Of a stretch of DNA of 64,000 bases, positions 31,288 to 58,120 are shown in pieces (the stretch's first letter is position 1; every line of letters begins with the position of its first letter). The notes under the pieces are model-generated. The model searched no databases. It saw only the letters and a list, made by a program, of their open reading frames with translations, and was not told where the DNA came from. This stretch comes from Myxococcales bacterium (lineage in GTDB: Bacteria > Desulfobacterota > Binatia > HRBIN30), in contig JBBILD010000001.1 of assembly GCA_037445065.1 (NCBI GenBank), forward strand, positions 32,001-96,000, written 5' to 3'. The position numbers and the translations under genes are program-made.

Positions 31288-33342
31288 TCACCAATGCGTG
31301 TCGTGTTGCGCCCCGGTTTCGGCCGCAGCAAGAAACGCTTGCGTTTTATCGGCTGGAACACCGAGAAGTTCGCCGATACGAAGGCTTGCCGCCAGCGCGT
31401 AGAGTTCGCTTTGCCCAGCCCAGTCCCTGCGCAACGGAAACGTCGAATTGCTCGCTTTGGCGAGCCAGCCAGAATGCGTGCGGATAAAACATTCGGACCC
31501 GAACCACTGAGCGCTGCGCAGACCATCGAGCGTTCTTAACGCCGGATCGTCGGCACAAGCCAGAATCACTTTCTGCCGGGAGCGCATCCTAGCGCAAAGA
31601 ACTTCAATTTCCTGCAAGAGGAGTCTTACCAACTCTGGGTCCCCAGCAGGAGGATGCGCGACCGGGGTGACGACGGCGAGATCCGGTTCGACAACATCCA
31701 GGAGCGCGCGCATGTCACCAGGAGCAGCGATCCCTAGCTCCAAAATTAAAACATCGCATTTCGTGGGCGAGACTGCACCGAGGATACAGCGCAGCAACGC
31801 TTCGACGCGACCTATGTGATGTATCCGCACGTTTAGGATCGCTAATGGAAGCCCGATTTGGGTATTGTACGAGAGCGGGTTGGACCTCACCTGAAAGTGT
31901 TGCCCAAGGTACCCGGTCAAAGTCCGTTTGACCACGGTTTTCCCCCGGCCACCCGTAATTCCGATAATGATCGGCCTGTGTCGCAGTGCCGCCTTTGTCA
32001 ATGTTTTCAGCGTCAAACTAGCGAGCCTGCGCCGGAGCTTGGAAGGACGGCTCCCAAGAGAACCCACTGGCTGAAAGCCAATGCCTGCACGCTTTAGCAC
32101 CTGAAGTTCGCGAGTTTTCGGCAAAAAGAAGTCGCGGATGCGTTCAAAGGCACGATCGATCTCCTCGGTCGAACGCGCGAAGCAAAAGCGTAAGTGCCCC
32201 TCTCCCGTAGGACCGAATGCAACACCAGGGACGACGGCGACCTTGGCGACGCGCAAGAGTTCCCGTGCAAGGCGCATAGAGTCGCGTGCACAAGGGACGC
32301 CGTCTTTAATGCGTGGAAAGGCAAAGTACGAGGCCTGTGGTGTCTGGTAGTCAAACACCCAAGGCAACGAATCCAAATGCTCGATCATTCTCCGCCTGCG
32401 CGCCCGGAGTTCTTCCCGGAATCGTCGCACTAGTTTTTCGCCGTGCTCCAATGCCGCAAGGGCTCCGTACTGAGACGCAACGGGCGCACAGGTTACTAAT
32501 GCGTCATGGGCGCGGAGGATACGTGCCGCGAGGTTCCGGTCCGTGTGCAGAAAGCCGACTCGCCAGCCAGTCATGGCGAACGCCTTAGAGAACGAGCAAA
32601 TGCGGACCGTTCGGTGGCGGAAGTCCGGCCATCGGGCGGGACTCATGACCGGTCGCTCCACGTAAACAAAATCCTTGTAAACCTCATCAGAAATGACAAT
32701 CAGGTTGTGTCGCTCAGCGAGATCGAGAAGCGAGCGAACCGCCTCTGGTGAGAAGATCGTGCCGGTTGGGTTGTTTGGCTGGGCAATGAGGATTGCGCGG
32801 GTGCGCGAGGTCACTGCCTGTCGGCAACGCTCCGGATCGAGATCGAAACTCCTGTCTTCGTCGAGTGGAACGAAGCGCGCGTGTAGTCCGGCTAGCTTCA
32901 ACGCGCTGAGATACGAGGTGTACGAGGGTGAGGGTAGAAGCACCTCGCATCCGGGTTCGAACAGTGCCAGCAGTGATGCGCTCAGACCTTCGATCGATCC
33001 GCAGGTGACGATGATTTCGGAGTCAGGATCGTAGTGCATCCCGTCCTGCTTCAACGTTTCGGCGATTTGCTCGCGCAGTCGTGGCAGGCCCGGGGACAGG
33101 GTGTACCGCGCACAAGAGCCGTCGCGGATGTGTTGAACGACGAACTGCTTGATTTCCTCCGGGGTATCGAAACTAGGGATCCCTTGCGCGAGCGAGATTA
33201 CGTCTGGGAGACCTGCTGCTTCCAGTTCGATGGCCTTGATCGGCGAGAGTACGAGTTCTTCCCACGGGCGTGGTGCAAGCGTACCCCAAAGTGAGGGATC
33301 CTCTGCCAATTGGCGTTTGCGGCTACCGTTCCTCTCGGCCAT
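31288..33342 (-). CDS. Class I/II PLP aminotransferase fused to a MurF-like central ATPase domain
   Basis: PNNPTG, SDEVY, SFSKAFAMTGWRVG; then IIGITGGRGKT, SYNTQIGLPL, LILELG..PGDM...PDLAVVT. Confidence 0.85.
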   Translation of the reverse strand: MAERNGSRKRQLAEDPSLWGTLAPRPWEELVLSPIKAIELEAAGLPDVISLAQGIPSFDTPEEIKQFVVQHIRDGSCARYTLSPGLPRLREQIAETLKQDGMHYDPDSEIIVTCGSIEGLSASLLALFEPGCEVLLPSPSYTSYLSALKLAGLHARFVPLDEDRSFDLDPERCRQAVTSRTRAILIAQPNNPTGTIFSPEAVRSLLDLAERHNLIVISDEVYKDFVYVERPVMSPARWPDFRHRTVRICSFSKAFAMTGWRVGFLHTDRNLAARILRAHDALVTCAPVASQYGALAALEHGEKLVRRFREELRARRRRMIEHLDSLPWVFDYQTPQASYFAFPRIKDGVPCARDSMRLARELLRVAKVAVVPGVAFGPTGEGHLRFCFARSTEEIDRAFERIRDFFLPKTRELQVLKRAGIGFQPVGSLGSRPSKLRRRLASLTLKTLTKAALRHRPIIIGITGGRGKTVVKRTLTGYLGQHFQVRSNPLSYNTQIGLPLAILNVRIHHIGRVEALLRCILGAVSPTKCDVLILELGIAAPGDMRALLDVVEPDLAVVTPVAHPPAGDPELVRLLLQEIEVLCARMRSRQKVILACADDPALRTLDGLRSAQWFGSECFIRTHSGWLAKASNSTFPLRRDWAGQSELYALAASLRIGELLGVPADKTQAFLAAAETGAQHDTHW

Positions 33343-47810: not shown

Positions 47811-50800
47811 TCAGCGACAGACAAACGTACTCCCGCTTCGTGAGAACTCACACCGAGGGCGCACGCTAGTGCTTTCATTGAACGTAAGGCTGCTGCACTG
47901 TCCCATTGCTGCGCGGCTCTGATTACCGAGGACAACGATCAGCTGAACCGGGTCCTTGCCTGGCTGAATCTGAAAATCGCCGGTCTTTCCTTTGATGGTC
48001 ACGGTAAAAAGACCCGGCGTCCGCGTGGAACTGCGAACGGTTGCCTTTACAATGTCCCCTTGGAGCCGGTCAGGGTCGCGGTAAGTGGCTACATGGCCGC
48101 TGGTACTGAGTCGCCAACCAACGTCCGAGCGCGAGGTGGCAGCGCCTCCCGGAACGATCCTTTGCCACAGCAGATTCCCGTTTCGATCGAGCACCGCGAA
48201 ACGGATTCCCTCCGCAACTGGGTTAGGCGCTGGGACGGCGGGTGCGAGCATCCAGGCCACCCGAATGCTGAGGTTTTCATCGCCTGCTGGATCGGGGTTC
48301 CGTGTGATCTTCAGTTTTGCTGGAGAAGGAACAGTAGTGCCGCTGCAAAAGACTTCTGGCAGTGGGGTCGTTGTTGGCGTTGGGGTCTCGGTTTCCGTAG
48401 GGGTCGGCGTCTCGGATGGTGTGGGCGTCTCGGATGGTGTGGGCGTCGAGGTCGGAGTCTGAGTGGGGGGATCCGTTGGCGTCTGCGTGGGCGTCCAGGT
48501 CGGTGTCAGTGTGGGCCCGCCGGGTGTGATTGTCACAGTAGGTGTTGGGGTGGGCGTAAAGGTGAGGCTGGGTGTCGGCGAGAGCGTGGGAGTGCTTGTC
48601 CGGGTTATGGTTGCTGAGGGCGTCCAGGTTAGGGTTGGGGTCGGTGTCAGCGTGGGCACGGGCGAGAGGGTCGGGGTCTGGGTGGCGGTCAAAGTTTGGC
48701 TCGGCGAGGGCGTGGCTGTGCGCGTCGGGGTTCGTGACGCAGTCGCCGTGGACGTAGCGCTAGGAGTGGGGGTGGCAGTCGCGAAGTTCGGGGTGCTGTT
48801 GGGGTCAGCCGGGTCGGAGCCCGCGTCGATTTCGTCGCGATCGAAATAAGAGTCCTCGTCACGGTCGACGCCCATCCGCACCGCGGATCCTAACGGGACG
48901 GCCGTATACGTAAGCTCCTGACCTGGGATGGAAGCCACCATGCGCAGGGAAGAATCGGTCCAGGCGGGCTCACCGGCTCGGTCGCTTTGGAAGGTACCAG
49001 TGGCTGTACGGTACCAGCCGCGCATCTCGCCGTTGTAAAAACCTTTCACGACGATGTCCGTTTCCCCCGCGGCAGCGCGCTGCAAAAGCAGGTCGATGCG
49101 CGGATTAGCCACTGCAGCGTTGGCTGAGGTCAGGGTAACCTGCTGTCCAACAACGGGGAAGAGATCCGTGTCGAACGCGAGCAGAAACTGCTCCACATTG
49201 CGCCGCTGGGTGTCCCCGCCGTCGAAGCCAGCCCCATTTTGGTTATTGAAGACGGTGGCATTGAGAAATCGAAAGAGGGTGTCCACGCTACCGTCGTGGA
49301 GAAAGCCGAAGCCCCGGATTTGGTCACCCTTGTGTCCGTTGTCGCCAGAGTTGAAGAACGGAACGGCTGCCATCCCGAACATTCCGACTTTTTGGTAGAG
49401 GTTTCGCAGGTGGGCGATCTTGATGACTTGAGGCTCGTTTTCGAAGCTGGCCTTCCCATCTGTGCCGAAGAACCCTTGAGCACGGTTTGTCACGTGGCAG
49501 CCGTTGCAAGTGTGTCCAAGCGCGCTGTCCGTACCATCCGTGCCGAACGGGATTCCATCTGCGCGGCGAGGACCAAAGAAGAAGTCGCGGCCCGCTTGCT
49601 GTGCCGGTGTGAGGGAGTTGTCTAGGGCGCGGATGGGATTCGGCGGCAACTTTACTTGCAAGATAAAGTCAGTAAACGCTTGCATCTCTGCTGCGGTGAG
49701 TTGCGCGCTTCGGCCAAGCAGTCCAGGGAAAGCGACGTTGAACGCCTTGAACGCAAGATCCGCGCTGAAGGGCTGAGAACTTCCTCCATTGCGGTCACCC
49801 CGCCAGTGCATGGCCCCGTGGTTGACGAGCCCTCGTAACGTTTGCGTGGTCATCGGGCCTTTCATTGGATGAAAATCGCGGAACACTCCGCTGGGAATGA
49901 ACGAAGCCAGTTTCACAGGAAGCGGGTTCGTCTGGGTTTCATCGTCCGGGTTGCCGAGATCCCAGGCGAGGCTGTCGAGGTCTGCGAAGATGTGACAACT
50001 TGCACACGCTGCTTCTCCGTTGCTCGAGGTATATTGCGCATCGTACAAAAAGCGCCGCCCATTAATCACCGAAGCCGGTTCGGGATTATAGAGGGACACG
50101 TGGTCCACCTCGGTTTTGGTCGCCGTGTCCACGATTGCGATCCCGTTGTCGAAACGCGTCAGGACGTAAAGTCGTTGCCGCGTTTCATCGAGGGCCAAAC
50201 CCGCCGGCCCGCCGCCGCTGACAGAAATGTAGTTGGCGCCGTTCGGAACAAATGTGTCGGCCTCGAGTTCGGCAGTTTGAAAAACGCCGACTTTGCTGGA
50301 GCCGAAAGCCGCGACGTACAGGGTCTGGCCATCACTGGTCACGACCATGTCCAGCGGTGTGGCAAGGCTGTGATCCTTGGCCCCTGGCGGAGCTGGGCGC
50401 TGACTGTAGTCAATGTGCTTGTTCAGATGGCGTGGTAGCACATTGGAGCCGGACAGAACCGTAATCCTCGCCTCGGCGAGGTGCCCTTGCACTGTGGTTC
50501 CCCCGAACTGGGCCGCAAAGACTCCGGGACCTTCGAACCGAAACTCGTTGCGCGCCTCGAAGTTGCTCACGTAAATTTTCCCGGTAACCGGGTTCGTGAC
50601 CATGTTGAACAAGATCGTCCCGACACCGGCGAAGTAGCCCGCTCCACCGGGGAGTTGGGCCGGCGGGTTGGCGTTGGCGTCGATGACAAACACGTCCTTG
50701 TCGGGTAAGTTGAATTTGACGGCATTGTTCCAGTTGCGCCCACACACGCTTCCTGGGCAGTCCGCATCGGTGGTACAACTCCAGCCGTACTTAGACCCAC

Positions 50801-51641
50801 CTGCGCACGCCTTATCCGACCAGTACGATCCATTCCACTTGACGATGAGGCCGACCTCGGGCGCCGCCGCACCGGTGTGATCGCGCGTAGGCAGCGGTAA
50901 TCCGCCCGGGTATGTCACTCCAGAAACCGTGCAGGGCCCCGCAACTACGTTATCCCCTTTGTTCGAGTCGTCGCACACGACGCCTTCGTTGACCACCGTG
51001 GTTTGGTTTCCAGAGTGAAAGACCGCCGCGTACACTCTGCTGCCATCCGGACTGACGGCAAGAGCGCGCGGCGTATCGCCAAACAACGTGAGGATGGCCA
51101 AGGGTATGCCGCCCAGCGAGCTTCCGAGATTGTTGGCATCGAAGACCCACACATCCGCGCGCCCGATTCCGGGTGTGGTGAGTTGGGGGTCGTTCGGGTT
51201 ATTTTGCCCGCGATGGGCACACGTGATAAACGCCCGATTTCTGCCCGGGCCGGCGAACACGATGTCCCGTGGTTCATCTCCGACTAATAGAGTGCGAACG
51301 ACGCGGGCAGGGAGGGACGACAGGTCCACAATGCTCACAGAGTCCGACAAGTGGTTGACTACCCAGACCTCGGTGTTCGTGCGGGCAGCCACCGCCACTG
51401 GTTCTAAGCCTACTGGCACGGAGTCCAAATGCGTCAGGGATCCGTCAGGATTAATGGAAAAGATTTCTAGGCGGCTGTCAGGGATGTTGGTCGCAAAAAG
51501 CTTGCTCCCGTCGGGGGACTTGGCCAGCGGCCGCACGGGGCCACTTTCGAACAGTGTGTACGGGCCTGCCGCGAGAACCCGAGGCAACGACAATAGTAAC
51601 GTGAATCCAACCCAAAACGCCCCGCGTGCGAGCGATTGCAT
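47811..51641 (-). CDS. Large secreted protein: YncE/YVTN beta-propeller, diheme cytochrome c peroxidase-like domain, Thr/Pro linker, Cys-containing C-terminal domain
   Basis: Signal peptide; VGLEPVAV/VGDEPRDI propeller repeats; CASCH and CNGCH; HWRGDR, HLRNL, LHDGS; DRDEDSYFDRDE Ca-binding-like motif. Confidence 0.85.
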   Translation of the reverse strand: MQSLARGAFWVGFTLLLSLPRVLAAGPYTLFESGPVRPLAKSPDGSKLFATNIPDSRLEIFSINPDGSLTHLDSVPVGLEPVAVAARTNTEVWVVNHLSDSVSIVDLSSLPARVVRTLLVGDEPRDIVFAGPGRNRAFITCAHRGQNNPNDPQLTTPGIGRADVWVFDANNLGSSLGGIPLAILTLFGDTPRALAVSPDGSRVYAAVFHSGNQTTVVNEGVVCDDSNKGDNVVAGPCTVSGVTYPGGLPLPTRDHTGAAAPEVGLIVKWNGSYWSDKACAGGSKYGWSCTTDADCPGSVCGRNWNNAVKFNLPDKDVFVIDANANPPAQLPGGAGYFAGVGTILFNMVTNPVTGKIYVSNFEARNEFRFEGPGVFAAQFGGTTVQGHLAEARITVLSGSNVLPRHLNKHIDYSQRPAPPGAKDHSLATPLDMVVTSDGQTLYVAAFGSSKVGVFQTAELEADTFVPNGANYISVSGGGPAGLALDETRQRLYVLTRFDNGIAIVDTATKTEVDHVSLYNPEPASVINGRRFLYDAQYTSSNGEAACASCHIFADLDSLAWDLGNPDDETQTNPLPVKLASFIPSGVFRDFHPMKGPMTTQTLRGLVNHGAMHWRGDRNGGSSQPFSADLAFKAFNVAFPGLLGRSAQLTAAEMQAFTDFILQVKLPPNPIRALDNSLTPAQQAGRDFFFGPRRADGIPFGTDGTDSALGHTCNGCHVTNRAQGFFGTDGKASFENEPQVIKIAHLRNLYQKVGMFGMAAVPFFNSGDNGHKGDQIRGFGFLHDGSVDTLFRFLNATVFNNQNGAGFDGGDTQRRNVEQFLLAFDTDLFPVVGQQVTLTSANAAVANPRIDLLLQRAAAGETDIVVKGFYNGEMRGWYRTATGTFQSDRAGEPAWTDSSLRMVASIPGQELTYTAVPLGSAVRMGVDRDEDSYFDRDEIDAGSDPADPNSTPNFATATPTPSATSTATASRTPTRTATPSPSQTLTATQTPTLSPVPTLTPTPTLTWTPSATITRTSTPTLSPTPSLTFTPTPTPTVTITPGGPTLTPTWTPTQTPTDPPTQTPTSTPTPSETPTPSETPTPTETETPTPTTTPLPEVFCSGTTVPSPAKLKITRNPDPAGDENLSIRVAWMLAPAVPAPNPVAEGIRFAVLDRNGNLLWQRIVPGGAATSRSDVGWRLSTSGHVATYRDPDRLQGDIVKATVRSSTRTPGLFTVTIKGKTGDFQIQPGKDPVQLIVVLGNQSRAAMGQCSSLTFNESTSVRPRCEFSRSGSTFVCR
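48361..48783 (-). repeat. Thr/Pro-rich low-complexity linker containing an exact 18-bp tandem duplication (48406-48441)
   Basis: (TP)n-rich stretch of about 140 aa; GGCGTCTCGGATGGTGTG occurs twice in tandem. Confidence 0.9.
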
Positions 51642-51754
51642 AGCCGTGTCCAATCTTCCCTCCCCAGATGGGGCGTCGCTTACCACAGGTGGAGTTCGAT
51701 TGACAACACAATAACGCAACCTTCTTGTGCCACGGGAGGACAAAGCGCGAGGCG

Positions 51755-51780
51755 GGAATAAAATGAAAAGAATGAACGTA
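51755..51780 (+). promoter_or_regulatory. ECF-type promoter GGAAT-N17-CGTA
   Basis: GGAAT AAAATGAAAAGAATGAA CGTA, 38 nt upstream of the ECF sigma start. Confidence 0.6.
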
Positions 51781-51818: not shown

Positions 51819-52391
51819 ATGGCCTGGCCAGGAAAAGATCGCGGGTGGTTCGAGCGCGAGGTCCTACCTCATCTCTCTGCACTGTATCAGTTTGCCGTAG
51901 AGCTGGCCGGCCTAGACGACGCAGAGGACCTTGTGCAGACGGCCGTTCTGCGTGCATGGCAGCGGCGGGCATTGGCGCGGCCGGACCGCAGTTTGCGACC
52001 CTGGCTCTTTGCGATTCTGCGGCATGAGTGGATCGATGAATGTAGGCGGCGCCAGCGTGTCGGTCGCTGCGACAACGTAACGGAGGAGTTGCTTCTGACG
52101 CCGTTGTCTTCTGATCCAGTGGCATTGGTGGCTCAACAGCGAAATGCTCGCCGGGTGCGGGACGCTCTCCGGGCCATTCCTGAGGCGTTCCGTTGGCCGG
52201 TTTACTTGAAGGACGTCGAGGGGTTCGGGTACCGCGAAATCGCGGAAATTTTGGGACTTCCTATCGGTACCGTAATGAGCCGTCTCGCCAGGGGCCGCGC
52301 GCTGCTCCGAGAGCGCCTGGAGGAAGTGGCAGCGGAGTCAGGTGTTGCCGGGTCACGGTCCGTCGTAAGGAAGCGGACAAATGGATTGTAG
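51819..52391 (+). CDS. ECF RNA polymerase sigma factor
   Basis: DAEDLVQ, WLFAILR, EGFGYREIAEILGLPIGTVMSRLARGR. Confidence 0.95.
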   Translation: MAWPGKDRGWFEREVLPHLSALYQFAVELAGLDDAEDLVQTAVLRAWQRRALARPDRSLRPWLFAILRHEWIDECRRRQRVGRCDNVTEELLLTPLSSDPVALVAQQRNARRVRDALRAIPEAFRWPVYLKDVEGFGYREIAEILGLPIGTVMSRLARGRALLRERLEEVAAESGVAGSRSVVRKRTNGL

Positions 52392-53208
52392 TAGTTGTCA
52401 GCGGTACGTGACCGCATACGTCGATCACGAGCTGGGCCTGGAACAAATGCTCCTTGTCGAGGAGCACGTTGCCGCGTGTTCTGCTTGCCGTGGGCGGCTC
52501 GAGAACGAGCGGGAAACAGCCCTTCTGGTAGCCGAATACTTTCCGCGCCTGGTGGCTCCGGAACGTTTGCTGCATCGGATTCGAGCTGCGCTTCGCTCGC
52601 CGGTGCGGTGGCCCGTGCGCAGCACACCGGTTTGGCCCCTGGCTGCCGGTTTATTCTTGGTTTGGTTGGGTTGGTGGATCGGAATCGGGGGTGTCTTGAG
52701 CAAGAACCCACCGGAAATCGTGCGCGACGCCATTGAGCTTCACCGCCACTCAGGGCTTCCCGATGCTTCGGCTGTGCGAACGGATGATCCCGCCCTTGCG
52801 AATCGATGGCTGCGGGAGCGGCTTGCGTTCATTCCTGAGGGTGCGCTCAGAACGCCGGATGGTGCCGAACTCGTGGCTGCACAGGTCGTCACCATTGCTG
52901 GCACGTCGGCGGGTTTCGTCCGCTACCGGGCGCGGGACGGGCATGTTTCGTTGTTTCTCCTCCCGGCACGCTCTCTTCCCGCTAGCGGGGAGAAATTTTG
53001 GGTCGGCGGAGTGGAGTTTCGAGCCTACGCGTGGCAAGGAGAAAGGCCAATTTTGTGGAATCATGACTCCGTTTCTTACATTTTAGTCGCTGAGTCGAAT
53101 CGGGAAATCGGGGAACATGTCCGCGACCGGTCCCCGCGGGCCTGCGGGGTGTGTCATTCGGTCGGGAACGAATGGGCCCGGAAGCTCTCCTCCGGAGAGT
53201 TGTTGTAA
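52381..53208 (+). CDS. Transmembrane ZAS (zf-HC2) anti-sigma factor with C-terminal CxxCH
   Basis: MDC...AYVD.EL...EHVAACSAC (HxxxCxxC), TM helix, extracytoplasmic domain, ACGVCH near the C-terminus; overlaps the sigma stop. Confidence 0.88.
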   Translation: MDCSSCQRYVTAYVDHELGLEQMLLVEEHVAACSACRGRLENERETALLVAEYFPRLVAPERLLHRIRAALRSPVRWPVRSTPVWPLAAGLFLVWLGWWIGIGGVLSKNPPEIVRDAIELHRHSGLPDASAVRTDDPALANRWLRERLAFIPEGALRTPDGAELVAAQVVTIAGTSAGFVRYRARDGHVSLFLLPARSLPASGEKFWVGGVEFRAYAWQGERPILWNHDSVSYILVAESNREIGEHVRDRSPRACGVCHSVGNEWARKLSSGELL

Positions 53209-53225
53209 CGAGTTGGGGTGGACGG

Positions 53226-54356
53226 ATGAGAAAACCAGCAAGATCTTTGGCGGCCTCTCTTTTCGGTGCTTTTGCATTGTACCTCCCGAAGGGCGTGTTG
53301 GAGCCAATCATTCCGGCAGACAACCCATTGACGGTCGAGAAAGTGGAATTGGGAAAGAAACTGTATTTTGACAAACGCCTTTCGGCGGATGGGACGGTGG
53401 CTTGTGCTACCTGTCACGATCCCACGAAGGGCTTCTCGGACGGTCGTCCTGTGGCCACTGGGATCCGCAACCAAGCGGGTGCTCGCAACTCGCCAACCGT
53501 CTTGTACGCTGGGTTCAGCGAGATCCAGTTCTGGGACGGGAGAGCACCATCCTTGGAAGAACAGGCAAAACAGCCCCTCATCAACCCGGTAGAAATGGGA
53601 CAACCGTCGCATGATGCGGTCGTGAAGGCGGTGCAGGCGGTTGCCGACTATCCGCCCCTGTTCCAGCGCGCCTTTGGTAGCCCTACGATCACGATTGACC
53701 GGATTGTTCAAGCAATCGCCTCCTTCGAGCGAACACTGGCACCGTTTTCCTCGCCCTTCGATCGCTTTCTGGCCGGGGAAAAAGACGCGATTAGCGACTC
53801 CGCCAAGCGCGGCTTCCAGCTGTTTTTGGGTAAGGCGCGCTGCGTTACCTGCCACGAATTCAACGCCGCATTTCCGTTCTTTACCGACAACAAGTTCCAC
53901 AACATCGGCGTGGCAATGAAAGGGAACTTCGAACAGTTGGCCCGCGAGGCGCAAGCCTTGGTGGGTCGTGGGAAAGAGGCCGAAGCGGAGCTCACCCACA
54001 AGCCGGGGGTCGAAGCACTGGGCCGCTGGATCGTTTCCCGCGAGCCAAAGGACATTGGAGCCTTCAAAACCCCGGGCCTTCGCAACGTCGCCTTGACGGC
54101 GCCGTACATGCACGACGGCAGCTTGCGAACGCTCGAAGAGGTGATGGAGTTCTACAATAAGGGCGGGGAACCAAATCCCAACTTGGACGGAGGCATGCGC
54201 CCGCTCGGCCTCACGCAGCAGGAAATCACAGATATCATCGAGTTCATGAAGAGCCTGACGGACGAAAGTGGAGGCAAGAATTTCAACTGGGAGGAATTGA
54301 AAGCGTTGGCTCAGAAAACACGCGCTGGGGAGTTGGTGCCGGGCCCCGCGCCGTGA
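53226..54356 (+). CDS. Diheme cytochrome c peroxidase/MauG superfamily protein
   Basis: CATCH, RNSPT, QFWDGR, CVTCH, FKTPGLRN, PYMHDG...FY. Confidence 0.93.
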   Translation: MRKPARSLAASLFGAFALYLPKGVLEPIIPADNPLTVEKVELGKKLYFDKRLSADGTVACATCHDPTKGFSDGRPVATGIRNQAGARNSPTVLYAGFSEIQFWDGRAPSLEEQAKQPLINPVEMGQPSHDAVVKAVQAVADYPPLFQRAFGSPTITIDRIVQAIASFERTLAPFSSPFDRFLAGEKDAISDSAKRGFQLFLGKARCVTCHEFNAAFPFFTDNKFHNIGVAMKGNFEQLAREAQALVGRGKEAEAELTHKPGVEALGRWIVSREPKDIGAFKTPGLRNVALTAPYMHDGSLRTLEEVMEFYNKGGEPNPNLDGGMRPLGLTQQEITDIIEFMKSLTDESGGKNFNWEELKALAQKTRAGELVPGPAP

Positions 54357-54391
54357 GAACGGAACACGGTACCGGGAAGGAGGAATGAGTC

Positions 54392-55540
54392 ATGGCAAAG
54401 TACACGCTCCCTCAGGAACGGAAAAAACAAGAGTATCTGGGCGAGCGCGACCGGTTTTTCGCCGAGCTGCCTAAGCTCAACCGTCGAGACTTTTTCAGGG
54501 TTGCCGCCAAGGCAGCGGCAGTGGCCACCGCGTTCTGGAAGGGGTATCCACCCCACTCGTTTCAACTGATTCGGGTTGCCGAAGCGAAGCAGAGCCAACC
54601 TAAATTCACGTTCGCGTATATCTCCGATACACACATTCTCGACAAAGGGCTCAATCATCGCTTTGTCAAAGCCTGCCAGAAGGCGGTTCAGGACGTGAAT
54701 GCGCTCGATCCGCAGCCCGATTTTGTCTTGTTCGGGGGCGACTTGGCGCAGTTGGGCAAGGCCGAGGAGCTGTCGATCGGGCAGCAGATCTTGAAGGAGT
54801 TAAAAGCTCCCGTACGCATGATGGTTGGCGAGCATGACTGGTACTTGGACATGGGCGAGAAGTGGCGCGAAATGTTCGGTGAGCCCACGTATTCGTTTGA
54901 TCACAAGGGCGTCCACTTCGTTGTTTTGAATTCGGTGATCGTCGAGGACTATTGGACCGAGCCGAAGATGACCCCGATGGAGCGCATGCTCGCTATGGCG
55001 CAACTCGACAATCCGAACGGCCGCCCATTTATGGTAGGCGAAGAGCAACGCGATTGGTTGCGGAAGGATTTGGCGAAGGTCGACAAAAAGACTCCAGTCG
55101 TGGTCTTCTCGCACTCCCCGCTATACAAGTACTACCGCCCATGGAACTTTTGGACCGAGGATGCCGAAGAGGTCCAGAAGTTGCTGTTTCCGTTCGAATC
55201 GGTGACCGTCATCCACGCGCACACGCATCAGGTGCTGACCAACCGCATCCGCAACATTACCTTCCATGGGGTTTTATCGACCGCCTGGCCCTGGCCGTAT
55301 GCGCCCACCGGGATTCCAGAACTCACCGTTCAAATGGTCCGGGCGGACCCTTTTAATCAGTTCGATGGTTGCGGCTGGGGAACCGTCTCGATGCGAGAAG
55401 ATGGCCAGGCGGACAAACACTACGTACTCTGGGACCGGAACCCAATGACCGTGACGTTTGACCACGTGCGCCGAGGCAAGGAAGGAATGCGTGAGCTGGC
55501 AAAGCCGTTCCAGGGTAGCCTGAGCTGGCCATCGTACTGA
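54392..55540 (+). CDS. Tat-exported calcineurin-like metallophosphoesterase
   Basis: NRRDFF Tat motif; SDTH, GGDL, GEHD, HSP, HAHTH metal motifs; AAGGAGG RBS. Confidence 0.9.
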   Translation: MAKYTLPQERKKQEYLGERDRFFAELPKLNRRDFFRVAAKAAAVATAFWKGYPPHSFQLIRVAEAKQSQPKFTFAYISDTHILDKGLNHRFVKACQKAVQDVNALDPQPDFVLFGGDLAQLGKAEELSIGQQILKELKAPVRMMVGEHDWYLDMGEKWREMFGEPTYSFDHKGVHFVVLNSVIVEDYWTEPKMTPMERMLAMAQLDNPNGRPFMVGEEQRDWLRKDLAKVDKKTPVVVFSHSPLYKYYRPWNFWTEDAEEVQKLLFPFESVTVIHAHTHQVLTNRIRNITFHGVLSTAWPWPYAPTGIPELTVQMVRADPFNQFDGCGWGTVSMREDGQADKHYVLWDRNPMTVTFDHVRRGKEGMRELAKPFQGSLSWPSY

Positions 55541-55572
55541 CCGAACCCCGGCTGGACGGAAGGAGAACACAG

Positions 55573-56181
55573 ATGCGTTGGGTTGCAAAGAGACAGTGGC
55601 TGTTTGGGTTTGCCGGGCTGCTCGCAATTTCGATGCGTCCGGCTTACGCGGGCGAGATTGCCAAGCATCAATTGCCCTCAGCCCCGGATGGGCAAAGCAA
55701 GGTGGTGGGCCTATGTGACGGAGAAACGTCCGTTGTGGTCCCCGGTGTCGCTGCCCATGATCGAATGAGTCCTCAGCAGGCACGTTCGGTCGCAACGGAA
55801 CTCATGCGGCGGCACGAGGAAAAGAACCAAGTAGCCCACGGAGGGCAGGAACACACGCAGCGCGAGATCCGGGTTTGGGAAGCGGAGCTGAAGCGTGTCG
55901 TTGACGAAGGATACCGGTTATTTCACTCGCCGGAGCTTGGGACCAACGGCATTTCTTGCGACATGTGTCACCCGGATGCGAGCAATACCCACCCGGAGAC
56001 ATACCCGAAGTTCCAAACCCAGCTTCGCCGCATTGCGCTGCTGCGCGACATGATCAACTGGTGTATTGAAAACCCGATGGAGGGTCCGCCACTACCGGAA
56101 CACGATGATAAGATGAAGGCGTTGGAGGCATACATCATCTCAACTAGGAAGGGTGTGGCATTAGCTCCCGGCAAGCATTGA
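55573..56181 (+). CDS. Monoheme c-type cytochrome, SoxA/TsdA-like
   Basis: Signal peptide; SCDMCH; YPKF...LRDMINWCI..PM.G...ALEAYI. Confidence 0.8.
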   Translation: MRWVAKRQWLFGFAGLLAISMRPAYAGEIAKHQLPSAPDGQSKVVGLCDGETSVVVPGVAAHDRMSPQQARSVATELMRRHEEKNQVAHGGQEHTQREIRVWEAELKRVVDEGYRLFHSPELGTNGISCDMCHPDASNTHPETYPKFQTQLRRIALLRDMINWCIENPMEGPPLPEHDDKMKALEAYIISTRKGVALAPGKH

Positions 56182-56549
56182 TAGCGGAAGTCGGAGTCGC
56201 CGTTATTCTGGTCTTTTTCGGGGCAGGGGCCTCTGCGGGCGAGGAGGGGAAGTATCGCACTCGCCTCCTCGCCCGTGAGTTCCTCGAGCACCAACAGCAA
56301 CTTGGTTTGGACCAGTCGCAGGTAGAACGACTCGAGGCGCTCGCTCAACGGTGGGAAGCGACCCACCGGGCACTGGCGCCGCGGGCATCGAAGGACGGGT
56401 ATGCGAGCGTACAAGAAAAGGCGGACGCCTTATTCGTTTGGAAGGAGCTGAGCAGCCAGCGCGTTCTCGTTGACCGAGACGCATTGTTCGTGCTCTCCCC
56501 CGAGCAGCGCCAGAGGTGGCGGGGGCTTCATTCGCAAAAAACCCCATGA
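56178..56549 (+). CDS. Spy/CpxP-like periplasmic helical protein
   Basis: Signal-like N-terminus; LGLDQSQ and VLSPEQR (LTxxQ-like) motifs; start overlaps the upstream stop. Confidence 0.55.
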   Translation: MIAEVGVAVILVFFGAGASAGEEGKYRTRLLAREFLEHQQQLGLDQSQVERLEALAQRWEATHRALAPRASKDGYASVQEKADALFVWKELSSQRVLVDRDALFVLSPEQRQRWRGLHSQKTP

Positions 56550-56665: not shown

Positions 56666-58120
56666 ATGGATCGGCGCAGAAAGAAACCTGTGGGCGTACG
56701 GGGTGTCACCCGTCGAAGGGCATTGCAGCAAATCGGCGCGGCCGCCGGCGCGCTTTCGCTCTCCCCCCTGTGGATGGGCTGCGGCGACGATGGAGAGAAA
56801 GGGTTGTTCGACCAACCTCCTTTGACGCCTCAAGAGTTGCGCGTCGACACGGTTGTGCTGGTCATGATGGAGAACCGAACCTTCGACCATTTTCTGGGCT
56901 CGTTGTCGCTGCACGAGGGAAGGTCGGTGGACGGCCTGCGAGCCGAGTTCTGGAACCCACGCCCTGACGGAAGTCGCGTACCGGTGTTCCCGTTGGGACC
57001 TCGGTGTGTTGCTGATCCTCCACATGGCTGGGAGGCAAGCTTCCGCCAGGTCAACGACGGCCGCATGGACGGCTTTGTGCGCGAGCACTCCGCGGAGGTG
57101 GGTGCGGAACATGGGGATGAGGTCATGGGATACTACCAGCGTGCCCAGTTGCCCATTTACTACGCGCTGGCTGATGAGTTCGTGCTCTGCGAACGCTGGT
57201 TTTGCTCGGTGCGCGGCCCGACATGGCCGAACCGGATGTACTTGCATGCGGCGCAGTCCGATGGCCGCAAGGACAATAGTTTTCCTGGGCCGGCGGGTTT
57301 TCGCTTTGCCACGATTTACGACGTACTCAACGCTGTCGGGATCGAGTGGAAGTACTACTTTCTTGACTTGCCGTTCTTAGCCCTCTGGGGGAGCCTGCGC
57401 ACCCAATCGCAACGCTTGCGCCCGCTCGAAGAATTCTTCGAAGATGCTCGCTCCGGTCGGCTACCACCCGTGACAATCGTGGAGCCGGGGTTCACGCTGA
57501 ACGACGACCATCCTCCGCACGACATCCAATTGGGGCAGGCGTTCATTGCGGCGGTTCTTCGAACCTTAGGAACTAGTCCTCACTGGCCCCGCTGCCTCTT
57601 CATCCTCACGTACGATGAACACGGCGGTTTCTTTGACCACGTACCACCACCGACTGTACCGGACGAGCGCTCTGACCAAGGTTTCGGTGCCTTGGGCCCG
57701 CGTGTCCCAAGTTTTCTCGTATCCCCGTGGGCCAAGCGCGGGTTCGTGAGCCCTACGGTATATGAACACAGCTCGTTTCCCGCTTTCCTTGAGTTTCTCT
57801 TTGGTCTGGAACCTTTGACCATGCGGGACGCTCAAGCGAACATCTTTTTGGACGCTTTTGACCGAGATCGCCTGCTGCGCAACGACCCGCGCTCTTTCCC
57901 GGCCTTGCCCCAGCTTGTCGTGGACGAGGAGCCTGCGCCGGAGTGCGTCGCCCTCGGGGCACCCTCGGGACAAGCGGCCATTCAGGATATCGAACGCTGG
58001 GCAGATACCGGCGCCTTGGAGCGCGAGCTCGACCGGCGAAAGTACGCGCGAGAAACCCTTACCTATATCAACCGGCAGTTGGTGCGCTCCGGCTGGGCAC
58101 GCTGGCGGCACAGCAGTTGA
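56666..58120 (+). CDS. Tat-exported phosphoesterase (phospholipase C/acid phosphatase AcpA family)
   Basis: TRRRAL Tat motif plus MGC lipobox-like; MMENRTFDH, PTWPNR, DDHPP, YDEHGGFFDHV, GPRVP. Confidence 0.92.
   Translation: MDRRRKKPVGVRGVTRRRALQQIGAAAGALSLSPLWMGCGDDGEKGLFDQPPLTPQELRVDTVVLVMMENRTFDHFLGSLSLHEGRSVDGLRAEFWNPRPDGSRVPVFPLGPRCVADPPHGWEASFRQVNDGRMDGFVREHSAEVGAEHGDEVMGYYQRAQLPIYYALADEFVLCERWFCSVRGPTWPNRMYLHAAQSDGRKDNSFPGPAGFRFATIYDVLNAVGIEWKYYFLDLPFLALWGSLRTQSQRLRPLEEFFEDARSGRLPPVTIVEPGFTLNDDHPPHDIQLGQAFIAAVLRTLGTSPHWPRCLFILTYDEHGGFFDHVPPPTVPDERSDQGFGALGPRVPSFLVSPWAKRGFVSPTVYEHSSFPAFLEFLFGLEPLTMRDAQANIFLDAFDRDRLLRNDPRSFPALPQLVVDEEPAPECVALGAPSGQAAIQDIERWADTGALERELDRRKYARETLTYINRQLVRSGWARWRHSS

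Follow-up and report, generated by a model that had tools for sequence, protein, structure and literature searches.

Several described systems resemble parts of the locus considered in this report. One example is BthA of Burkholderia, a dihaem enzyme of the Tyr/His type that always neighbours a putative exported phosphatase, PhosA, and that turns over H2O2 when given an electron source and forms a bis-Fe(IV) state, its physiological function being unassigned (PMC6405878). Another example is presented by two groups of extracytoplasmic function (ECF) sigma factors, ECF206 and ECF207, which have a zinc-finger, one-helix anti-sigma factor at position +1 and a conserved upstream context of a calcineurin-like phosphoesterase with either a cytochrome c (ECF206s2) or a cupredoxin (ECF207), no function being given, and of which ECF207 is assigned the promoter GGAATAAA/GTC (Casas-Pastor et al., 2021; PMC7826278 supplement). 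A third example is the Cache_heme sensors, in which an extracytoplasmic sensor domain that acquired a short CXXCH element uses haem c for sensing (PMC12889525). These are the nearest precedents for a six-gene operon that we analyzed in a 64,000-nucleotide window (the whole stretch of DNA examined: positions 32,001 to 96,000 of contig JBBILD010000001.1, assembly GCA_037445065.1) from a bacterium of the class Binatia. We find that this operon is built around a conserved unit of three genes, encoding a dihaem enzyme, a dimetal protein and a cytochrome, and we put at about even the chance that a haem-c sensor induces these proteins as a periplasmic, peroxide-consuming oxidoreductase, in other words that the module is a peroxide-response set. 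The features of the operon are the following.

51755..51780, plus strand: predicted ECF promoter, GGAATAAA-N14-CGTA, with the sigma start 39 nt downstream
51819..52391, plus strand: ECF sigma factor of 190 amino acids (aa), ECF26/206/207 neighbourhood (PF04542, PF08281)
52381..53208, plus strand: anti-sigma factor of 275 aa, with a zinc finger on the cytoplasmic side, one membrane helix and an outer domain (PF13490, zf-HC2)
53226..54356, plus strand: dihaem enzyme of the CCP/MauG superfamily, 376 aa (PF03150, CCP_MauG, E 7e-61)
54392..55540, plus strand: twin-arginine dimetal protein with GpdQ/Rv0805 fold, 382 aa (PF00149, Metallophos)
55573..56181, plus strand: monohaem cytochrome c with SoxA/TsdA-type domain (PF21342, SoxA-TsdA_cyt-c)
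56178..56549, plus strand: small exported helical protein, weakly Spy/CpxP (LTXXQ)-like; accessory, in Binatia-like loci only

An earlier, sequence-only reading had proposed that these six co-oriented, tightly packed genes form one self-regulated periplasmic system. The six reading frames are confirmed on the plus strand, with family profiles in agreement and intergenic gaps of -11, 17, 35, 32 and -4 nt (taking ATG 53226 as the dihaem start), and a terminator scan 3' of the sixth gene returned nothing above chance. To determine how much of the operon is conserved, we rely on two samples. A pattern search of a genome collection gave 583 matches, 549 of which encode a relative of the dimetal protein, and the best 80 of these 549 loci make up the first sample, which is thus seeded on the dimetal protein. 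The dihaem gene is found in 79 of the 80, the exception lying where a contig begins, and the cytochrome gene in 76; of the four loci without the latter, three miss it at the locus end and in one the gap is real or due to a frameshift. An independent sample, seeded on the cytochrome and covering 401 genomes of one phylum, gave 22 matches, from which 21 loci were retrieved; the three genes follow one another in strict order at 19 of these (the dimetal gene being split across frames in two), and of the remaining two loci one is truncated where its contig begins, and the other has only the cytochrome of the three. Because the trio is near-universal in both samples and the other genes are sporadic, it is the trio that constitutes the conserved unit, and its clustering is far beyond chance. 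The order dihaem-dimetal-cytochrome is the same across Binatia, Kryptonia, Myxococcota, anammox Planctomycetota, Acidobacteriota, Methylomirabilota and others, with a methanotroph, myxobacteria and anammox bacteria among the holders and with the dimetal protein maintaining about 60-68% identity across phyla. The regulator pair, seen beside the core in Binatia and Acidobacteriota, and the Spy-like gene are lineage-specific additions: of the 80 loci, 15 have the anti-sigma gene and 7 the Spy-like gene. On these counts the six-gene unit was rejected as the conserved system, and what survives of that proposal is the co-occurrence of the trio across phyla, along with the broader description of a self-regulated, conserved, periplasmic and uncharacterised redox module, for which profile scores, synteny counts and the promoter motif speak. 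The label of the sixth gene likewise holds only weakly, as the LTXXQ match has an E value of 0.034, under the cut-off (15.3 bits for PF07813, cut-off 24.3), and the Atlas matches stand at 0.86-0.87, below 0.9.

Within the host genome (97.7% complete) the locus is single-copy, with one further, more distant dihaem paralogue. Among kin the distribution is patchy: strong matches occur in 14 of 40 relatives of the host, and the nearest named relatives of the dimetal protein are Candidatus Binatia records at 79-92% identity. Permanent joining of the partners is also seen, in two clean fusions of the dihaem enzyme with the dimetal protein, which share 78% identity, and in one dimetal-CuA fusion protein; five of the eight long proteins (P0276, P0279, P0280, P0281, and P0283) were dropped as frameshift-garbled read-throughs. 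The lone cytochrome of the second sample (L143:6949-7806) belongs to a genome, G115, in which a search with P0001 did not find a dimetal homologue. In two genomes without the ECF motif the module is flanked by genes for a Fur-family regulator (L137:8536-9018) and a ferritin-like protein (L138:1532-2059), in line with an iron or peroxide link.

The regulator provides the first indication of what the module responds to. From its promoter and gene context we infer that the sigma factor is of the ECF26/206/207 type; its best NCBIfam profile, PRK12533, gives 128 bits, short of the cut-off of 248, and the traits matched are the GGAATA(AA) -35 promoter, the zinc-finger, one-helix anti-sigma at +1 and the phosphoesterase context. 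The motif GGAATAAA-N14-CGT at 51755 is one of two strict matches in the host genome, and it fits the ECF26 and ECF207 consensus (PMC6180224; PMC7826278 supplement). Upstream of the operon it is present in 29 of 76 loci, some of which served to derive the pattern, whereas it occurs in none of 551 control windows and in 18 of 3800 base shuffles. In a cleaner test, on further Acidobacteriota loci, all 26 of 26 target genes have the motif facing them (two of the genomes apparently being those of L038 and L043). The anti-sigma factor contains HxxxCxxC at residues 29-36, a hydrophobic segment at 84-102, the only such segment both here and in 117 of 120 homologues, and CGVCH at 255-259 (DNA 53143-53157). 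This outer CxxCH is found in 16 of 16 proteins at 23-37% identity from two phyla, in 120 of the 120 homologues listed (mostly of one tight clade) and at 39 of 39 further loci; the anti-sigmas that accompany a distant, ~33% identical phosphoesterase in the Acidobacteriota sample are without it. Because the motif lies past the single helix, in a genome with cytochrome c maturation (three PF01578 matches), the anti-sigma is probably, judging by its sequence, a membrane sensor with covalent haem c on its outer domain. The CxxCH had been noted before, and it proves to be invariant, but nothing had been drawn from it, and it is this motif that points to peroxide.

Compared with the ECF206/207 description, with which it shares the anti-sigma type, the context of a phosphoesterase with an electron carrier and the promoter, the module adds the dihaem enzyme and the CxxCH anti-sigma; in the part of the supplement searched (PMC7826278), CxxCH has 0 occurrences and no dihaem enzyme is named. 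The RpoE4-SorT-SorU-Azu2 system of S. meliloti is similar in that an ECF26-type promoter drives a periplasmic metalloenzyme, a cytochrome c and a further carrier, but its signal is sulfite, and no haem is described on its anti-sigma in the available text (PMC3511301, PMC6180224). The Cache_heme sensors, in turn, differ in having a Cache fold, nitric oxide sensing and kinase or receptor output rather than an anti-sigma (PMC12889525), and the relevant available text of PMC11442138 deals solely with HasS. SorT is a molybdenum sulfite dehydrogenase.

What the haem anti-sigma controls can be followed in one class of Acidobacteriota, in which 47 of 121 genomes encode a CxxCH anti-sigma. Divergent from the sigma gene, 15 of these 47 have the module, 11 a member of a second dihaem CCP-like family and 6 a catalase-peroxidase, the other 15 having a different gene or none there, so that a haem peroxide-type enzyme adjoins the sigma gene in 32. 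The six catalase-peroxidases start with signal-peptide-like N-termini. In the largest clade with other neighbours the module is located elsewhere, behind the promoter motif, in 4 of 4 genomes tested (three of these being loci of the first set). The module cytochrome was found in 5 of 5 control genomes, and it was not found in five genomes of the catalase-peroxidase type and five of the second dihaem type (their completeness is not given); in the host of the window, conversely, a KatG-like match was not found. On a quick anti-sigma tree, in which the row of the window is a very long branch of unsure placement, the four target labels need 15 changes, and the well-supported branches force at least 4 changes for the module and at least 2 each for catalase-peroxidase and the second dihaem family. 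The target of the anti-sigma has thus been swapped repeatedly, among the module, the second dihaem protein and an exported catalase-peroxidase. With a catalase-peroxidase occupying this regulatory position in related bacteria, it is most likely that the enzyme set of the module consumes hydrogen peroxide by redox chemistry and is not an ordinary phosphatase.

The second exported dihaem family is 75-80% identical within itself, has remote CCP/MauG similarity only, no Pfam match at 1e-7, and the same sigma promoter motif; its members are at L186:5628-7115, L190:9200-10600, L191:6394-7902 and eight further Acidobacteriota loci. One more gene divergent from a sigma/CxxCH anti-sigma pair and behind the promoter motif (L250:2382-4148) encodes a twin-arginine protein of 588 aa.

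Of the three core proteins, the dimetal protein has the least expected character. Its model (pLDDT 93.9) matches GpdQ, Rv0805 and purple acid phosphatase, all at Z 23-25 (for GpdQ, Z 25.1, root-mean-square deviation 2.9, 239 residues aligned), and SoxB at Z 14.0 (4.2, 213 aligned). The class III phosphodiesterase fold of GpdQ/CpdA and its DxH, GD, H and HxH ligands are present, the putative metal ligands being D79, H81, D117, E147, H241, H277 and H279, but GEHD replaces GNHD, and the CpdA/SpdA profiles give 33-37 bits against cut-offs of 225-400. The Asn of motif III is Glu in 80 of 80 close homologues and in 32 of 35 diverse ones, and GEHD occurs in 92 of the 97 sequences that show the motif among 150 representatives. 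A change from Asn to Glu in GNHD removes a phosphate-contacting amide and adds a negative charge. Also invariant in the 80, along with the ligands, are R90, W251, W299, W301, and R317. Export by the twin-arginine translocation (Tat) route, as proposed earlier, is suggested by NRRDFF, whose RR pair is kept in homologues, although the Tat profile TIGR01409 does not match the protein. Distant relatives keep GEHD and adjoin electron carriers: at ~50% identity these are the same cytochrome family, a cupredoxin-like protein (CxxHxWM by sequence), SCO and HemA, and once cbb3-type oxidase genes; at ~33% identity, a CuA-type protein, a cupredoxin or a cytochrome c assembly gene. In all, an electron-carrier or haem-maturation gene adjoins the dimetal gene in 5 of 6 annotated regions of distant relatives, a plasmid copy being without one. 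One variant operon, on a Phyllobacterium plasmid (L097:6029-12084), encodes a cupredoxin-like protein, the dimetal protein, a short His/Cys cytochrome and then cbb3-type oxidase subunits; others, on Sinorhizobium plasmids (L093, L096), have opposite-strand soxYZ, a cytochrome and a flavoprotein after the short His/Cys cytochrome, and in the variants of both genera SCO and hemA are upstream.

The cytochrome consists of a single SoxA/TsdA-type domain, its model matching TsdA and SoxA at Z 9.9-10.3 (a Foldseek search with this model gave no match under E 0.001). Its haem motif is CDMCH, and the probable sixth ligand of a haem of the His/Cys type is Cys164, which occupies the position of the ligand Cys in SoxA/TsdA and is kept in 77 of 77 aligned rows. 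Two further conserved features are a second near-conserved Cys at residue 48 (CDG), within an N-terminal extension that the short variants lack, and a C-terminal GKH at residue 202. Co-folding of the dimetal protein with the cytochrome by ESMFold2 gave a pair score of 0.88, versus 0.01 for the best control, with at least 76% of contacts shared between runs and partner pLDDT of at least 74; the mark applied to this score is attained by 116 of the 157 solved pairs and by 2 of the 215 mismatched ones, rates that carry over only roughly to the present case. The dimetal protein is predicted to bind the cytochrome with the haem edge on its active-site loops, the interface comprising, on one side, the CxxCH edge, W163 and C164, and on the other the post-ligand loops including R90, Q120, W251, W299, W301, and R317, all invariant in 80 of 80. 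Searches of the PDB returned no comparable complex. These data bear on another alternative, namely that the dimetal protein is a conventional exported phosphodiesterase or phosphatase and shares its regulation with a peroxidase and a cytochrome that act independently of it. The intact GpdQ-like ligand set and catalytic His would agree with it, as would the phospholipase C/acid phosphatase-type gene next downstream, here and in the closest kin, and the putative phosphatase that neighbours BthA (PMC6405878). With the active-site loops capped by haem in a predicted tight complex, with fusions to redox domains, with sequence identity and fixed gene order kept across phyla, and with the near-universal Glu in motif III, we consider this alternative very unlikely, and the phosphoester hydrolysis initially proposed is so far unsupported.

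A likeness to SoxA and SoxB had also been suggested. The Sox core (SoxAX, SoxB, SoxYZ) and TsdA do share with the module a His/Cys haem domain, and Sox in addition a Tat-type dimetal protein of the metallophosphoesterase superfamily; the module cytochrome differs in being a single haem domain, without the TsdA arginines and without a second haem or SoxX, and the dimetal protein, unlike SoxB, is GpdQ-like and much shorter, with no match to TIGR04486 (SoxB). The three arginines that flank the Cys in TsdA are Q150, M160, and N167 here, the first domain of SoxA likewise having Met at the M160 position; the cytochrome gives 37 bits for TIGR04484 (cut-off 110) and is the one PF21342 match in the host genome. 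In TsdA these arginines bind thiosulfate, and the first domain of SoxA is non-catalytic. With the fold nearer GpdQ than SoxB and the arginines missing, the analogy does not hold, and the statement that the locus is not canonical Sox is upheld by the host genome, in which SoxZ (PF08770) has no match, the same search matching a positive control in Thermus and no separate search for SoxY being part of it. A miniature Sox system may still be imagined, in which thiosulfate or sulfite would be coupled to Cys164 and sulfate hydrolyzed off by the dimetal site, SoxB-like, with peroxide as the oxidant. The SoxA/TsdA domain, the presence of Cys164 and of invariant R90 and R317 within the predicted interface, the response of the ECF26 sigmas RpoE1 and RpoE4 to sulfite and their control of sorT-cytochrome-pseudoazurin (PMC3511301), and the soxYZ and flavoprotein genes beside a Sinorhizobium locus and tauE near the Phyllobacterium locus could all be cited for it. 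Given the replaced arginines, the contrast in fold Z, the host without SoxZ, SoxB over the cut-off in none of five other module holders and no sulfur gene recurring among the flanks, such a system seems just as improbable as the phosphatase.

The dihaem enzyme deviates from canonical bacterial cytochrome c peroxidases (CcP) at the electron-transfer haem, whose His/Met ligation is not matched: Tyr310, invariant in 79 of 79, aligns with the Met of CcP 3o5c and with the Tyr of 6e1c, at the position of the distal ligand of the second haem. By alignment this would be the Tyr-ligated, six-coordinate haem that marks MauG-type bis-Fe(IV) enzymes, the Tyr/His signature being that of MauG and BthA (PMC6405878). 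The earlier verdict that the locus is neither mau nor mbn agrees with the profiles, MauG TIGR03791 giving 261 bits against 443.85 and MbnH TIGR04039 giving 251 against 362.85, and with the absence of recurring mau/mbn neighbours. BthA is a distant match (6nx0, E 2.6e-19, versus 1e-55 for CcP and 6e1c); with BthA/PhosA, PhosA being compared by description only, the module shares a Tyr/His dihaem enzyme next to a phosphatase-type protein, but an inter-haem Trp (W103), invariant in the module enzymes, is absent from BthA, and no His/Cys cytochrome or haem anti-sigma is described for that pair in the available text. At one locus (L142:3652-5943) the Tyr position is His and the WPWPY of the dimetal protein is WPCPC, a natural co-variant or an assembly error.

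Like MauG with preMADH and MbnH with MbnP, then, the module combines a Tyr/His dihaem enzyme with an exported, Trp-rich partner and an electron carrier, the partner having a metallophosphoesterase fold rather than being methylamine dehydrogenase (MADH) or MbnP. Modification of a neighbouring protein, which the sequence-only reading had entertained, would here mean that the MauG-type enzyme uses H2O2 to oxidize W251, W299 or W301 of the dimetal protein to a cofactor or cross-link, the matured dehydrogenase then feeding the cytochrome. The Tyr/His signature, the invariant Trp residues at the mouth of the active site, WxW included, and the two precedents (PMC6405878, PMC11892367) keep this in play, but the ~50% identical rhizobial loci maintain the tryptophans and the cytochrome with no dihaem gene within the 13-15 kb read, the tryptophans are already accounted for as the predicted cytochrome interface, catalase-peroxidase replaces the module at the same slot, and permanent fusions suit a catalytic partner better than a one-off maturase. 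We regard such maturation as unlikely and do not favour it.

The reading that we prefer, of a haem-sensed, peroxide-consuming oxidoreductase, could operate as follows. Peroxide, or the resulting redox change, would alter the haem c of the anti-sigma and free the sigma factor, which would transcribe the operon from the GGAATAAA promoter, the motif being observed and its activity presumed. The dimetal protein and the His/Cys cytochrome would form a two-subunit metallo-oxidoreductase, with the haem edge docked, according to the model, via W251 and W299/W301. A small periplasmic donor would be oxidized at the dimetal site, from where the tryptophans and then the His/Cys haem would conduct electrons to the dihaem enzyme, which would reduce H2O2 to water. 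The net effect would be peroxide removal, a role that in sister genomes would be held by the exported catalase-peroxidase, and in distant relatives the dimetal protein may be wired instead to a cupredoxin, a CuA domain or a cbb3-type oxidase. The lead candidate for the donor is a sulfur oxyanion such as sulfite, sulfur being the best guess because of the SoxA/TsdA ancestry, the ECF26 sulfite response (PMC3511301) and one soxYZ-linked locus; the host without SoxZ, SoxB over the cut-off in none of five other holders and no recurring sulfur gene nearby speak against it. Taken jointly, that the anti-sigma senses peroxide by its own haem c, and that a dimetal oxidoreductase capped by the His/Cys cytochrome is Trp-wired to a bis-Fe(IV) enzyme, the trio replacing catalase-peroxidase, is somewhat less probable than not.

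A number of observations weigh against this reading. At 15 of the 47 anti-sigma loci no peroxide enzyme is alongside, and none is recognised beside nine weaker-scoring CxxCH anti-sigmas of the phylum sample. The second dihaem family is uncharacterised, and we only infer it to be a peroxide enzyme. The dimetal protein retains the hydrolase fold's catalytic His as well as each of the seven metal-ligand positions, and the clustering of flanking genes, with a Pfam scan of 58 of 98 chosen neighbours, provided no recurring clue to a substrate. His/Cys haems are usually of low potential, a poor fit for an acceptor, a role that would need a strongly reducing donor or a ligand switch, and electrons could run the opposite way. 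The promoter motif is absent upstream of all 19 complete cytochrome-seeded loci, and because of this the peroxide link is seen for one regulatory lineage only. Finally, MauG-type enzymes are generally poor dye-linked peroxidases (PMC11892367).

Peroxide might also be handled at the dimetal site itself, by reduction or dismutation as in rubrerythrin or Mn-catalase, the cytochrome feeding or reactivating the site and the dihaem enzyme acting as a second sink. The extra carboxylate of E147 may suit higher-valent Fe or Mn, any of the partner carriers seen could give electrons to peroxide, and the interchange with katG would agree with it. The conserved unit, though, encodes no electron source for the cytochrome, and we know of no peroxidase precedent in the metallophosphoesterase fold besides side reactions of purple acid phosphatase; this mechanism appears decidedly unlikely.

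Outside the core, two neighbours deserve mention. The gene at 47811-51743 (minus strand), divergent from the sigma gene here and in four close relatives, encodes an exported beta-propeller protein of 1310 aa with two CxxCH motifs and a Pro/Thr linker, weakly like hydrazine synthase beta and gamma; no ECF promoter motif faces it, and a 64% identical paralogue is on host contig C2. At 56666-58120 (plus strand), 116 nt after the sixth gene, a twin-arginine protein of the phospholipase C/acid phosphatase type (PF04185) is encoded, an arrangement reminiscent of BthA with PhosA, and in L199 a CxxCH anti-sigma is followed by a further PF04185 gene. We did not count the downstream phosphoesterase or the divergent beta-propeller/dihaem gene as part of the core, as they are syntenic in the closest relatives only (2 of 80 loci in one set, 4 of 9 in another).

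In conclusion, our search of the literature found nothing on the operon or on a haem-c anti-sigma, with subscription papers, including the MbnH/MbnP primary papers, outside the search and a description elsewhere thus possible. What is new here is the modelled complex of a dimetal protein with a cytochrome and the link between a haem anti-sigma, the module and catalase-peroxidase. The metallophosphoesterase fold is known for hydrolysis, and a widespread clade that is heme-docked and joined to electron carriers would, if real, represent a new redox enzyme class. Likewise, a haem-c anti-sigma would, if real, provide a new means of relaying redox signals from outside to the transcription machinery, and the exchange with catalase-peroxidase identifies a directly testable signal. 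The finding also bears on the role that orphan MauG-type enzymes, BthA among them, play together with their ‘phosphatase’ neighbours.

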